64,000 nt of DNA from Chlamydiia bacterium (GTDB lineage Bacteria > Chlamydiota > Chlamydiia > Chlamydiales > Rhabdochlamydiaceae): contig CAWDOQ010000019.1 of NCBI GenBank assembly GCA_963804085.1, positions 96,001 through 160,000 on the forward strand, in the 5' to 3' direction. The notes below the pieces were generated by a model. That model saw only the letters and a list, made by a program, of their open reading frames with translations, was not told the DNA's origin and ran no database searches. Within the stretch, counting starts at the first letter, position 1. The number at the start of each line of letters is the position of its first letter. Positions 52,265 through 63,049 of the stretch are shown one piece after another. Position numbers and translations under genes: made by a program.

Positions 52265-52540
52265 AATTTCATAAACACAGAGGGAGAGAAACGAGGCGCT
52301 AAAACGCTGAGATCGTCCCTTTTACATAGTAAACAGTAGAAGAAGGAAATATTTTCACGAAAGCAAGGAAGTTCATTGGTTTATGCGCTAATTAGTTTCC
52401 TTGCTTTCGTGAAAATATTTCCTTCTTCTACTGTTTGAACTTCGTTCAAAAGGGACGATTGGGCTTCTATACATTCAGATAATTCTCCAGATTTCTCAGC
52501 GTCTTGGTGTCTCGGGCGTTTTCTCTGTGTTTAGGAAATT
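52265..52540. repeat. Nested hairpin element, family C, copy 1
   Basis: Outer IR AATTTCATAAACACAGAG/CTCTGTGTTTAGGAAATT; ATCGTCCCTTTT/AAAAGGGACGAT; perfect 40-bp stem 52331-52370/52397-52436. Confidence 0.95.
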
Positions 52541-52569
52541 CGAAACCATGAATACGTCAGAGACCCTGC

Positions 52570-53823
52570 TCAGATCTCAACAGTGAGGAGCTCTTGCCAA
52601 CTTGTGGTGTAGCGGGGGGAGGCGTTTTCTCGTTTTCTCTGCCACTTTTTCTCGAAGCCCTCTGCGGCAAAGCGCACCTTGCCACCCTCGAGAGTCCGGT
52701 TGATCTGGTCGAGTATGGCCATCGCTTTTTTGCCTTTCTCATTGGAAAGGGAGGGGGAGGAGAAGAGGTCTCTTTGGTAGGTCTCTTTAGAGACAAGGTC
52801 GCCAAAGATCACACCCACCTTTTTGTAGAGGTAGCCTTTGCGGAAGAGGGGGGCAAGCGCACTTTTTGCAGCTTGGATGAGCTGAGGGGTGTAGCTGGTG
52901 GGCTCAGTCAAATTGATTGTGAGTACATTGGAGTAGCGCGAGTGTGTGAGGAAGGGCGATGTAGTGATAAATACGGAGAGGTGGGAAGCGAGAAGACCCT
53001 CTCTGCGGAGCTTAACGGCCGCGCTTGCAACATAAGTGGAGAGAGCCTCCTCTAGATCTGCAAGCTCAGTCACGCGCGTCCCAAATGAGCGCGAGCAGGT
53101 AAGCGACTGGCGTGTGGTGGGGATCTCCTCCAAGCTGAAGCAGGCGGTGCCTTTTAGTTCGAGCACCGTGCGCATCACAAAAACAGAGAAGTGGGTTTTT
53201 AGCCAAAGCTCAGACGCTTGCTTCAGGTCGTATGCGGTGAAGATGCCGTGGCTTTTGAGAGCGAGGTTGAGGCGGCTTCCGATCCCCCAGATATCGGAGG
53301 GAGCTAGATTTTTCAATGTCTCATCGATGATCTTTTCGTCCATAAGGGCAAGAACTCCCGAGGGAGCAGTTTTGGCAAGGTCACCTGCAACTTTAGCAAG
53401 CGTCTTGGTGGGACCGATGCCGATCGAGACGGGGATGCCGGTCCACTGCACAACCCTCTTCTGGATCTTGAGTGCTTCTTCAACCGGATCTTTACCATCT
53501 GCGATAAGAAAGGCTTCGTCCACCGAATACTCCTCGACATGCGGCGAAAGATCGTGCAGCACCTGCATAACTCTACACGAGATATCGGCATACAGAGCGA
53601 AGTTGGAGGAGAGGAGATGCACGCCCTTCTCTTTGAAAAGAGCCGCATACTGGTAGGCGGGAGCTCCAATGGGAATGCCGAGCGCTTTAGCCTCTTTGGA
53701 ACGAGCAACGATGCACCCATCGTTGCTGGAGAGAACGACGACCGGCTTTTTTAAAAGGCGCGGGTTGAAGAGCTGCTCGCACGAGACGAAGAACTGGTTG
53801 CAATCGACAAGCAAGTAGTACAT
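52570..53823 (-). CDS. umuC: DNA polymerase V catalytic subunit (Y family)
   Basis: LVDCNQFFVSCE, VLSSNDGCIVARS, YSVDEAF, SRSFG, SPRYTTSW. Confidence 0.95.
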   Translation of the reverse strand: MYYLLVDCNQFFVSCEQLFNPRLLKKPVVVLSSNDGCIVARSKEAKALGIPIGAPAYQYAALFKEKGVHLLSSNFALYADISCRVMQVLHDLSPHVEEYSVDEAFLIADGKDPVEEALKIQKRVVQWTGIPVSIGIGPTKTLAKVAGDLAKTAPSGVLALMDEKIIDETLKNLAPSDIWGIGSRLNLALKSHGIFTAYDLKQASELWLKTHFSVFVMRTVLELKGTACFSLEEIPTTRQSLTCSRSFGTRVTELADLEEALSTYVASAAVKLRREGLLASHLSVFITTSPFLTHSRYSNVLTINLTEPTSYTPQLIQAAKSALAPLFRKGYLYKKVGVIFGDLVSKETYQRDLFSSPSLSNEKGKKAMAILDQINRTLEGGKVRFAAEGFEKKWQRKRENASPRYTTSWQELLTVEI

Positions 53824-54249
53824 TCACAGAGCTTTATGGATGATGTAGGTGACAAGGCCCCAAACTTGAAAATCTCTTTCGGGAGCGATCTCTAACGGCG
53901 GAAAGGCGGGGTTTTCTGCAGCCAGAAATATCTTTTTGCCTTTCATGCGTATGCGTTTTACCGTAAACGCGCCATCTAGGATCGCAAGGACAATCTTGCC
54001 ATCGGAGGGCTCAAGTGCGCGGTCGATAATCAAGATATCTCCGGAAAAGATGTTCGCCCCTTCCATCGAACTTCCCTCCACGCGCACAAAAAAAGTAGCG
54101 GCAGGGTGGGAGAGCAGAAGGTCGTTTAAGTCGAGATTCTGTTCAATATCGCCTTCAGAGGGCGATGCAAAACCTGCGGGGACGGTGCTAGAAAAAAGAG
54201 GAAGAGCTTCTGCCCTTCCTCCCTGTGCTTCTAATTTATGTATTTTCAT
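53824..54249 (-). CDS. umuD: DNA polymerase V subunit UmuD (S24 peptidase)
   Basis: VPAGFASP, HPAATFFVRVEGSSM, FTVKR. Confidence 0.95.
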   Translation of the reverse strand: MKIHKLEAQGGRAEALPLFSSTVPAGFASPSEGDIEQNLDLNDLLLSHPAATFFVRVEGSSMEGANIFSGDILIIDRALEPSDGKIVLAILDGAFTVKRIRMKGKKIFLAAENPAFPPLEIAPERDFQVWGLVTYIIHKAL

Positions 54250-54250
54250 T

Positions 54251-61675: not shown

Positions 61676-61827
61676 CCCCTCGCGCCCGCTTCCGCGCCCG
61701 CATGCGCGCCCGATCCGGATTAATTTCGGATGTGCAGGCAAACCCGAGGAGATAAGAATAAGAAAGAAAAGATCGGGCGCGCATGCGGGCGCGGAAGCGG
61801 GCGCGAGGGGAGAGAAGATCGGGCGCG
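61676..61827. repeat. GC-rich hexamer-arm palindrome, family A, extended core plus partial third arm
   Basis: CCCCTCGCGCCCGCTTCC...GGAAGCGGGCGCGAGGGG then AAGATCGGGCGCG. Confidence 0.95.
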
Positions 61828-61841
61828 AAAAAGAGGGGGAT

Positions 61842-62711
61842 TTAGCTTGTTAGAATCTCATGTCCATTCGCAGTAATAAGAAGGGTATGCTCCCACTGCG
61901 CACTAGGCTTGCTGTCTGCCGTGCGTGCCGTCCAGCCGTCGCGCGCGTCAACTACAGCCCCTCGCACGCCGGCATTGATCATCGGTTCGATGGTGAAGGT
62001 CATTCCCTCGACAAGTGGAATTTTTACTTGGTTGAAGTGGTGGGGGATTTGGGGAGGCTCATGGAAGGCGATGCCGATCCCATGTCCTGCGAACTGGTTG
62101 ACGACGCTGCACTTATGCGCGCGCGCGTAGGTCTCGATCACCTCGCCGATCTCTTGGATCAGAAGACCGGGCTTTAAGATGGCAATCGAGCGCATGAGAG
62201 TGGCGTATGAGACGTCGACTACGCGTTTTTTCTCTTCACTTACCTCGCCAATGCAGACCATAGCGCTGCAATCACCGAAGTAGCCGTCTAAGATGCAAGA
62301 GATATCGATGTTCATGATATCCCCCTCTTTTAGAGGAAGATCGTCGGGGATGCCGTGGCAGATCACCTCGTTTAGCGAGGTGCAGATGCTCTTGGGATAG
62401 GGAGGAGAGCCGTAACCCAGAGGCGCAGGGATCGCGCCCGCATCCAGATGGAGCTTGTGGGCAAAGTCATTGAGCTCATTCGTAGTCACACCCTCTTTTG
62501 CCTTCTCGCAAGTCTTTTTTAAGATCGAGGCGGCGAGTTTGCACGCTCTTTTGATCCCAGCGATCTGCTCCTTAGTTTTTAGGATGATGCCATACTGCTT
62601 AAAGTAGTCAGAGGCAAGATAGGCGCTATCTTTGGGAGGAGCTTCCGGGTAGTGGCACTTTTTCCACTTTTCGCCGCTGCCACACCAACAAGGATCATTA
62701 CGTGAAATCAT
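61842..62711 (-). CDS. map: Methionine aminopeptidase with N-terminal SEC-C motif
   Basis: RNDPCWCGSGEKWKKCH, CTSLNEVICHGIP, GHGIG..FHE.P, FTIEPMIN, SAQWEHT. Confidence 0.96.
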   Translation of the reverse strand: MISRNDPCWCGSGEKWKKCHYPEAPPKDSAYLASDYFKQYGIILKTKEQIAGIKRACKLAASILKKTCEKAKEGVTTNELNDFAHKLHLDAGAIPAPLGYGSPPYPKSICTSLNEVICHGIPDDLPLKEGDIMNIDISCILDGYFGDCSAMVCIGEVSEEKKRVVDVSYATLMRSIAILKPGLLIQEIGEVIETYARAHKCSVVNQFAGHGIGIAFHEPPQIPHHFNQVKIPLVEGMTFTIEPMINAGVRGAVVDARDGWTARTADSKPSAQWEHTLLITANGHEILTS

Positions 62712-62772
62712 ACGATAATCTTATGAGAGAGTGCGTTTTGCTTCAATAGACCTCTTTCGACAGAGGTTCTTC

Positions 62773-63049
62773 AATTTCATAAACGCAGAGAAAAGCCCCG
62801 AGACGCTGAGACGCTGAGATCGTCCCTTTTACATAGTAAACACTAGAGGAGGGAAAAGTTTTTCAAGAAAGCAAGGAAGCTAATCATCCGTGCTAACTAT
62901 TGAATTTCCTTGCTTTCTTGAAAAACTTTTCCCTCCTCTAGTGTTTGAACTTCGTTCAAAAGGGACGATTGGGCTTCCATGCTTTCTATTCGCTCACTGA
63001 TTTCTCAGTGTCTTAGCGTCTCAGACTTTTTCTCTGTGCTTATGAAATT
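62773..63049. repeat. Nested hairpin element, family C, copy 2
   Basis: Same architecture as the 52265 copy; perfect 41-bp stem 62838-62878/62906-62946. Confidence 0.95.

Follow-up and report, generated by a model that had tools for sequence, protein, structure and literature searches.

A dispersed palindromic repeat of environmental Chlamydiota and the probable copying between arms of its central stem

Correia/NEMIS and ERIC/IRU elements are bacterial miniature inverted-repeat transposable elements (MITEs) of 100–300 bp that carry terminal inverted repeats, lie in intergenic DNA near gene ends, fold into rods and are modular or mosaic in build. In the non-coding DNA of chloroplasts, hairpin-associated ‘minute inversions’ are known in which the loop of a stem-loop flips recurrently and the stem stays intact. 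The REPINs of Pseudomonas and other bacteria are likewise short, non-coding, palindromic, extragenic and dispersed, with long predicted hairpins (excerpt of PMC3116915), and in the systems formed by repetitive extragenic palindromes and their associated tyrosine transposases (REP/RAYT), a conserved GTAG or CGTC tag stands at the foot of the stem (excerpt of PMC3733652). Finally, template switching between the arms of inverted repeats causes homogenization of the arms and inversion of the spacer (excerpt of PMC8604942), and the same process has been argued to be able to create and maintain RNA hairpins (excerpt of PMC8794818). Here, we analyze a palindromic element of about 276 bp that resembles each of these systems in part. 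Two copies, designated A and B, lie in a window of 64,000 nt from an uncultured member of the Rhabdochlamydiaceae (Chlamydiota), namely positions 96,001–160,000 of the forward strand of contig CAWDOQ010000019.1 (assembly GCA_963804085.1). Judged from sequence comparisons, the element is probably a selfish palindromic repeat of MITE/REPIN-like kind whose central inverted repeat is homogenized at the DNA level by copying between its arms.

With the Correia/NEMIS and ERIC/IRU elements, this element has in common its size, terminal inverted repeats, position near gene ends, rod fold and mosaic build; unlike them, it comes without a target-site duplication, without an insertion sequence of the same ends in the present assembly, and without an IS630-type transposase in its own genome (designated G000) or in those of two element-bearing relatives (G005 and G010). 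The apparent flipping of its loop recalls the minute inversions of chloroplasts, which belong to a different genetic system, affect single-copy loci and have shorter stems. The likeness to REPINs extends to compensatory changes, common on both sides of the hairpin, and to a single HUH gene in the genome (excerpt of PMC3116915). In contrast with REPINs, the HUH gene is bracketed by other repeats, a GTAG/CGTC tag is not conserved and there are 11 copies only, and the element further has a nested three-way-junction core, a perfect 40-bp stem and a loop that occurs in both orientations. Template-switch repeats resemble it in that their arms are identical while diverging between copies, that a spacer is inverted between perfect arms, and that multi-nucleotide and indel changes are transferred to the opposite arm. 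Their arms measure about 7–16 bp and their spacers a few bp, and they lie in genes and intergenic DNA (excerpt of PMC8604942), whereas the present arms are about 40 bp long, flank a 25-nt spacer and lie inside a repeated element, and the process is read from copies rather than from a strain phylogeny. No published description of such repeats in Chlamydiota, or of this element, was found in the full-text literature, which is not proof of absence; as far as that literature showed, a previously undescribed palindromic repeat family is thereby added to environmental Chlamydiota.

Build and copies of the element

The element consists of imperfect terminal inverted repeats of about 47 nt around a core of about 135 bp, with an unpaired spacer of about 34 nt after the core. 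The core is made up of a 12-bp stem (P1), a linker, a perfect hairpin of about 40 bp and a mini hairpin, GAAC-TTC-GTTC. Copy A spans 52265..52540 on the + strand, as delimited in an earlier note written from the letters of the window alone. Its left outer arm (52265..52311), an imperfect terminal inverted repeat composed of GAGACNCT-like tandem sub-repeats of 8–9 nt, leads into the 5′ half of P1 (52312..52323, ATCGTCCCTTTT), the ACATAGT linker of the three-way junction (52324..52330) and the 5′ arm of a perfect 40-bp hairpin (52331..52370). A 26-nt loop follows in what we term the forward orientation (52371..52396, TTCA..GATTAG type), and then the 3′ arm (52397..52436), the mini hairpin (52437..52447), the 3′ half of P1 (52448..52459, AAAAGGGACGAT), the unpaired right-hand spacer (52460..52493), from which the asymmetry of the frame arises, and the right outer arm (52494..52540), also an imperfect terminal inverted repeat. 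All of these parts are given on the + strand, as is a 25-nt module, CGAAACCATGAATAC.TCAGAGA, that abuts copy A at 52541..52565 and that is found, as its reverse complement, directly beside the left end in six other copies. Copy B (62773..63049, + strand throughout) has the same order of parts, namely a left outer arm (62773..62818), the 5′ half of P1 (62819..62830), the ACATAGT linker (62831..62837), the 5′ arm of a perfect 41-bp hairpin (62838..62878), a 27-nt loop in the reverse orientation (62879..62905, CTAATCA..ATTGAA type), the 3′ arm (62906..62946), the mini hairpin (62947..62957), the 3′ half of P1 (62958..62969), the spacer (62970..63002) and the right outer arm (63003..63049). The spacer is the fastest-evolving part of the element after the loop. 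Predicted RNA folding energies are −143.8 kcal/mol for copy A (z = −18.3) and −152.7 kcal/mol for copy B (z = −19.8), and in each case none of 200 shuffles folded as well, so the structure of the two copies is real and far beyond chance.

Much of what the earlier note had described is borne out. Both copies lie at its coordinates; each contains the two identical blocks that it reported, the 12-bp stem ATCGTCCCTTTT/AAAAGGGACGAT, the linker, the mini hairpin and the imperfect inverted repeat on the outside; the long stems are perfect, pairing 40/40 around a 26-nt loop in copy A and 41/41 around a 27-nt loop in copy B; and the arms of the two copies do differ by 6 substitutions and 1 indel, every one of them mirrored (alignment columns 6, 11, 14, 20, 21 and 30, with the indel at 23). 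Its view that the loops are dissimilar has to be revised, as they are related sequences, that of copy B being oriented opposite to that of copy A. The label ‘two-copy’ likewise fits the window but not the genome. The search of the same genome and of other Chlamydiota that it proposed yielded further copies and relatives, upholding a family and overturning the count: G000, an assembly of 2.13 Mb in 24 contigs that is 91% complete, holds 11 full-length copies and one half copy, and three other genomes hold relatives.

The full copies measure 275–278 bp and are 78–100% identical to copy A, and the half copy consists of the right half alone, starting within the hairpin; together, the 12 are spread over 6 contigs. 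All 11 full copies have sharp common ends, AATTTCATAAAC.. and ..GTTTATGAAATT, beyond which the flanks are unrelated, and all 11 have the imperfect terminal inverted repeats of about 47 nt, AATTTCATAAACGCAGAG.. / ..CTCTGCGTTTATGAAATT. The 25-nt module, ..TCTCTGAAGTATTCATGGTTTCG, abuts the left end of six copies, and its reverse complement abuts the right end of copy A and of the copy at C17:134332 (positions elsewhere in G000 carry a contig label), so that in some copies the palindrome continues past the ends first drawn for it (..GGTTTCG|AATTT / AAATT|CGAAACC..). Every full copy is intergenic. Four lie between convergent genes, seven between tandem genes (four in gene orientation, three opposite) and none between divergent genes, and each of the 11 adjoins at least one gene 3′ end. 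An open reading frame (ORF) of at least 120 aa overlaps one of the 11 copies, partly (a mechanical ORF of 171 aa), and none overlaps the other 10.

The assignment of the element to a class follows from these traits. As MITEs do, it forms small (<~600 bp), non-coding, dispersed copies with terminal inverted repeats and unrelated flanks; in contrast to them, neither a target-site duplication nor an autonomous insertion sequence with the same ends was found for it. As in REPINs, two inverted conserved units form a hairpin in which changes are compensated; in contrast to REPINs, it has neither a RAYT flanked by the same repeat nor the conserved GTAG/CGTC tag: GTAG stands near the arm foot in most G000 copies, is altered in four (GAAG, GTAA, GCAG, CTAG) and is absent in the fourth element-bearing genome, G140. 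Because two hallmarks of each group are missing, we class the element as a new family of the general MITE/REPIN kind and as a member of neither named group.

Concerted change in the arms of the long stem

The long hairpin is perfect over 39–43 bp in 10 of the 11 full copies of G000. The arms of the closest copies differ between copies, yet nearly every change stands on both arms of the same copy. Among the arm variants of this genome, 19 derived states were recognized, of which 17 are mirrored on both arms in every carrier; 11 of these 17 are private to one copy, among them a mirrored 1-nt deletion in the T-run of the copy at C10:192345. Both unmirrored states are in the copy at C23:105474. 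As for uncompensated mismatches in further copies, which, together with a lack of transcription, would have counted for the earlier note against a functional structure, one-arm states do occur and are confined within G000 to that copy. In the closest subfamily, of 7 copies, the arms carry 0.14 private states per column, compared with 29 in 179 columns, or 0.16 per column, over all non-hairpin parts. These near-equal rates indicate that the arms are not frozen and that they change at the ordinary rate, but in step. Furthermore, the copies at C16:106572, C10:192345 and C16:42413 have private mirrored changes despite having been duplicated within a larger composite repeat, which argues for copying in place.

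The kinds of base pair point the same way. With arm and loop boundaries set by anchoring on the conserved loop-proximal motif, the core stem of 19 copies from three genomes comprises 718 cells, of which 705 are Watson-Crick pairs, 1 is G:T, 4 are A:C, 5 are other combinations and 3 are gaps. The difference in RNA folding energy between the + and − strands ranges from −20.0 to +12.8 kcal/mol among copies and has no consistent sign. Broken down by helix, G:T and A:C cells number 36 and 12 in the outer arms, 1 and 8 in P1, and 7 and 6 in the long hairpin, so that no strand is favored throughout; as these tests of strand bias have mixed signs, we use them solely to indicate the absence of a consistent RNA strand.

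The loop supplies a further line of evidence. The frame around the hairpin is asymmetric, with the linker to the left and the mini hairpin and spacer to the right, and relative to this frame the loop, as assembled, runs forward in 7 full copies and in the reverse direction in the other 4. In one pair, the copies at C16:30459 and C19:235250, 397 of 403 columns outside the loop are identical, and the 25-nt loops, again as assembled, are exact reverse complements of each other.

Copying between the arms could take place during replication or repair by intra- or inter-molecular template switching, or, by an alternative route, through short-tract gene conversion between closely spaced inverted repeats, and it would also invert the spacer, leaving the loop in either orientation. 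For the perfect covariation, the earlier note had considered two causes: a structure of RNA or single-stranded DNA that is under selection, and a mechanism by which one arm is copied from the other. We favor the second as the likelier cause, though with less than full confidence, because mirroring extends to private variants, an indel among them, because G:T wobbles are very rare, because the strands show no consistent difference in folding and because the loop occurs in both orientations. On this account, the apparent ‘perfectly covarying RNA’ would exemplify a trap in which concerted DNA-level evolution of close inverted repeats imitates RNA covariation. The signs by which it can be recognized should be reusable in other scans, namely mirrored private variants that include indels, scarce wobbles, the lack of a strand preference and an inverted loop in some copies.

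Conservation across genera and competing explanations

A survey of 129 genomes of the same family, G000 included, in which 5 candidates per genome were scored, found the element in four genomes at E ≤ 1e-5 (G000, G005, G010 and G140). In the three besides G000, of the 128 others surveyed, the sequences are diverged, and the four genomes represent four different genera. A set of 40 related genomes yielded the element twice, in G010 and in G005. The 12-bp stem, the short linker, the long hairpin and the mini hairpin are kept in all four genera, and the best-conserved sequences are the mini hairpin and the loop-proximal 11-mers of the long hairpin, AGAAAGCAAGG/CCTTGCTTTCT, which are almost invariant. 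The outer arms are built of tandem sub-repeats of 8–9 nt that resemble GAGACGCT in G000 and either GACGCAAA or CACCGAG in G140, and they differ even among the copies of G140 (the stems of G140 and the outer-arm sub-repeats were judged by eye from the sequences). It is this combination that sustains interest in the family, a junction core conserved in four genera while outer arms are exchanged, together with palindromes inside palindromes.

Beyond these genomes, a metagenome scan with the G000-type block gave no match, and one with a degenerate pattern of the core gave 8 loci, all in one data set. Searched against one genome per species, the conserved loop-proximal motif occurs at 19 loci, 4 of them in the record set ‘MAG: Chlamydiae bacterium’; the other 15 belong, by their record titles, to unrelated taxa and were set aside as chance matches. 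The 4 chlamydial loci, along with a TLC ATP/ADP translocase gene beside one copy in G000, support the placement in Chlamydiota that the earlier note had supposed. No match to the element was obtained in plasmid and phage collections. G005 carries 5 full copies, several more that are truncated at contig ends, and many derivatives reduced to the outer arms. Among these derivatives (loci L068–L079 and L037), some have the form arm-short loop-arm, and in others the two arms have traded places about a second, small hairpin (..ATGAAATTC-ACATTCAGCCAATAAG-loop-CTTATTG.CTGAATGT-GAATTTCAT..), an arrangement that resembles a circular permutation. In L040, one of the 5 full copies, the element is inverted relative to two distinguishable flanking modules.

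Several observations weigh against homogenization of a mobile, selfish repeat as a complete account. Four genera, at a sequence identity of about 70%, share the architecture of the three-way junction, P1 has changes on both sides in 5 of its 11 pairs, and in the 4-bp stem of the mini hairpin an A:T pair is replaced by G:C in 8 of 19 sequences. Such covariation of the core is hard to credit to template switching, because a 4-bp stem and a 12-bp stem whose halves are split by about 130 nt would be poor substrates for it, and the core is probably under some selection, whether for a folded single-stranded DNA, for an RNA or for a symmetric site that a protein recognizes. The excess of G:T over A:C in the outer arms amounts to a mild bias toward the + strand, although P1 is biased the other way and a few positions account, by inheritance, for most of these cells. 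The orientation of the loop is read from a short-read assembly and would not be determined by the assembly graph if the word length of the assembler was not above the arm length. Neither are the stems perfect everywhere: 10 of 11 are so in G000, 2 of 5 in G005 and 1 of 3 in G140, and in G010 2 of 3 are perfect except for the two junction-most bases. The imperfect stems (1/11, 3/5, 2/3 and 1/3, respectively) carry one-arm defects. With regard to mobility, no direct repeat indicative of a target-site duplication was seen at the common ends of the 12 copies inspected, whose true ends are uncertain because the palindrome extends further in some copies. An autonomous partner with the same ends was not found in G000, where the ends match the 12 element loci alone, though with the genome 91% complete a partner might be unassembled. 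We thus infer mobility from dispersal alone.

Enzymes that might move such an element were sought by domain. A Y1_Tnp (HUH) gene occurs exactly once in G000 and once in G005, and no Y1_Tnp match was obtained in G010, which is 92% complete and has the element. In the family survey, Y1_Tnp is present in 45 of the 129 genomes and the element in 4, three of which have Y1_Tnp, frequencies that indicate no real association between the two. The gene of G000 (C17:57827-58168) lies between inverted repeats of 63 nt and 24 nt that are unrelated to the element. RVT_1, the reverse-transcriptase domain, has no match in G000 or G005, although control genomes do match; two rve transposases were found in G000 and in no other genome searched; and DDE_3 (IS630-type) is absent from G000, G005 and G010 alike. 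As an observation in its own right, the Y1_Tnp locus (C17:57692-58364; L081 1366-2038), with an ORF of 150 aa, is RAYT-like and appears to be a separate small REP/RAYT system, the bracketing repeats of which recur as pairs at three loci (C19:164-166 kb, C2:164 kb and C16:88-90 kb).

The non-autonomous HUH/REP-like mobile element proposed in the earlier note is, in kind, the closest of its candidates, but a link to the single Y1_Tnp gene of G000, flanked as it is by other repeats, is lacking. In a fuller form of this proposal, the element would be a REPIN-like single-stranded DNA whose folded core is the substrate of an HUH tyrosine transposase (RAYT/IS200-like), or of a different enzyme that recognizes hairpins and moves them. 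Pairing would persist either because poorly folding copies fail to be copied or because fold-back synthesis rebuilds the stem with every move. The proposal draws on the one Y1_Tnp gene in each of G000 and G005, bracketed by inverted repeats as RAYTs are; on the small hairpin, with its invariant TTC loop and covarying stem, placed next to a conserved linker and kept in four genera; on the core as the conserved unit, the outer arms differing even within G140; and on the report that compensatory changes are common in REPINs (excerpt of PMC3116915). Yet the repeats around the Y1_Tnp gene form a small family of their own at three other loci, G010 has the element and no Y1_Tnp match, the frequencies of gene and element in the family diverge widely, a GTAG-type tag is not conserved in the arms, and the private mirrored changes in copies duplicated within the larger composite suggest that conversion happened where those copies stood and not whenever the core moved. 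We therefore regard a REPIN-like mode as unlikely, while ranking it above the remaining alternatives. Somewhat less likely still is a related scheme in which the real unit is the junction core of about 135 bp, a mobile module recognized as a single strand that lands at the apex of pre-existing palindromes. It is suggested by the fact that the core lies in arms of different octamer repeats across genera and even within one genome, and it would build the Russian-doll nesting seen where the element sits in a repeat of about 475 bp and that repeat in the loop of a (GTGCCC)n hairpin. If it held, some enzyme would rebuild the perfect stem through fold-back copying whenever the core moved.

Selection on RNA pairing in a structured non-coding RNA gene or cis-acting RNA element is what the covariation would ordinarily suggest. 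In an alignment of 19 sequences (11 from G000, 3 from G010 and 5 from G005), the consensus structure comprises 86 pairs, both partners having changed in 41 of these, and 96.8% of cells are paired; when partners are slid by 1–3 columns, the paired fraction falls to 46–52% and the double-change pairs to 6–13, and none of 500 shuffles matches the consensus. The very stable predicted folds, the conservation of the junction core across genera and the mild + strand excess of G:T in the outer arms agree with an RNA. Against it stand the virtual absence of wobbles from the long stem, the mirrored 1-nt deletion, the lack of a consistently better-folding strand, the occurrence of copies in both orientations relative to neighboring genes, the lack of promoter-like or terminator-like sites in a scan of copy A, and the loop, usually the functional site, which here varies more than any other part and has the inverted orientation in 4 of the 11 copies. 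The terminal inverted repeats, the nesting of the element in other repeats and its 11 dispersed copies also sit poorly with an RNA gene. The Rfam comparison that the earlier note called for, made over window positions 51000–64000, gave 19 matches at E ≤ 1, all below the gathering score, so that no described family was found there; those on the element reach 30.9, 30 and 26 bits against a gathering score of 70 in each case, and these permissive matches were discarded as sub-threshold look-alikes of microRNAs and small RNAs, typical of any long hairpin. The undescribed structured RNA that the note had listed among its candidates consequently finds no support, and we consider an RNA role improbable. 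A signal that serves the host, whether a bidirectional 3′-end hairpin (a terminator or mRNA stabilizer) or a palindromic site for a dimeric protein on AGAAAGCAAGG/CCTTGCTTTCT and GAAC-N3-GTTC, is more improbable again. It would account for the position of all 11 full copies next to a gene 3′ end, with none between divergent genes, and for the loop-proximal 11-mers and mini hairpin being the best-conserved sequences. But no T-run follows the stem on either strand in copies A and B, the terminator scan is empty inside the element, the neighboring genes have no evident common function, and only 11 sites exist in about 2.1 Mb, with 125 of the 129 family genomes lacking the element at the survey threshold. 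Least credible of all, to the point of being negligible, is a retron-like msr-msd template without a local reverse transcriptase, also raised by the earlier note: its one point in favor is the long stable stem nested in outer inverted repeats, and it is contradicted by the lack of RVT_1 in G000 and G005, by the 11 dispersed copies and by the absence of a reverse transcriptase among the 24 flanking ORFs. Arm-to-arm copying in a selfish MITE/REPIN-like repeat thus continues to be our preferred explanation, and no cellular function is indicated for the element. Any copies transcribed together with neighboring genes would give rise to very stable 3′ hairpins on either strand.

Nested repeats and genomic surroundings

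Six copies are embedded wholly or partly in a composite repeat of about 475 bp that has its own terminal inverted repeats of about 45 nt (CTTCCTCTGTGGCCTCTGTCTCGACTTTAGGA..). The composite is seen at C16:30339-30833, and in part at C16:106463-106911, C10:192226-, C19:235165-235613 and C16:42325-; none without the 276-bp element was found in G000. The copy at C19:235250, itself in a composite, sits within the loop of a (GTGCCC)n hairpin, so that palindromes are nested in palindromes. A census of long hairpins in G000 (arm length ≥30 nt, loop length ≤200 nt) counted 103, which fall into several families, many with arms made of tandem sub-repeats of 6–8 nt. The commonest is a family with GC-rich arms (..CGCGCCCGCTTCCGCGCCCGCATGCGCGCCCGA..), for which 36 members were counted; 21 have perfect arms, and an 11-nt loop is present in half. 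SbcD (TIGR00619) was not detected above its curated cut-off in any of G000, G005 and G010 (weak scores of 29–36 bits), compared with 8 of 14 control genomes, SbcC not having been searched for, and this shortfall may help long palindromes to persist.

Within the window, five members of this GC-rich hairpin family, which has arms of 34–40 nt and loops of 9–55 nt, lie at 3519-3607, 19421-19501, 56813-56928, 59123-59205 and 61676-61810. Its long loops have a common CGGATTAATT end. The two loop orientations found in this family were considered as evidence of flipping and rejected, since the element is symmetric and offers no frame for orienting the loop. Other long hairpins, at 55751-55833, 26214-26318 and 6176-6298, have arms of tandem hexamers, (GTGCCC)n-like and (CAGGAT)n-like, and belong to other families. 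Arms composed of short tandem sub-repeats are a recurring theme, one that includes the outer arms of the element studied here.

Copy A is flanked by a Fic-domain gene (51083-52171, − strand) and a Y-family polymerase (IMS) gene (52570-53823, − strand), and copy B by a gene of methionine-aminopeptidase type (61842-62711, − strand) and a pseudouridine-synthase gene (63058-63801, − strand). Beside the other copies stand 20 ORFs that either lack a Pfam match or encode ordinary domains, such as those of metabolism and transport, one being a TLC ATP/ADP translocase. The proximity to an HUH or reverse-transcriptase gene that had been suggested for checking was thus not observed, there being no transposase, reverse transcriptase or HUH protein among the 24 flanking ORFs of all copies. 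In soil run X2, contigs of a related strain match the window up to 52246 and again from 52566, with other sequence, unjoined, between; over pieces of 522 and 817 bases, they differ from the window at 36 and 43 letters, gaps counted. This weakly hints that copy A together with the 25-nt module is an insert that varies between strains. Among contigs from 4 public runs that were placed on the copy A locus, none covers the element, so they are evidence neither for nor against expression or a loop orientation. A look through public sequencing runs likewise listed no RNA run that holds the sequence.

GAAC..GTTC half-sites occur, with different spacing, in the SOS boxes of some bacteria. The mini hairpin has the form GAAC-N3-GTTC (52437-52447 and 62947-62957) and, in copy A, lies just downstream of the Y-family polymerase gene, a likeness to SOS boxes that we regard as coincidence. 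The ORF next to the half copy (C10:225754-226785, locus L127) has a glycosyltransferase DXD-region domain, together with a weak match, of 26 bits, to a catalytic glycosyltransferase domain family named after large clostridial toxins.

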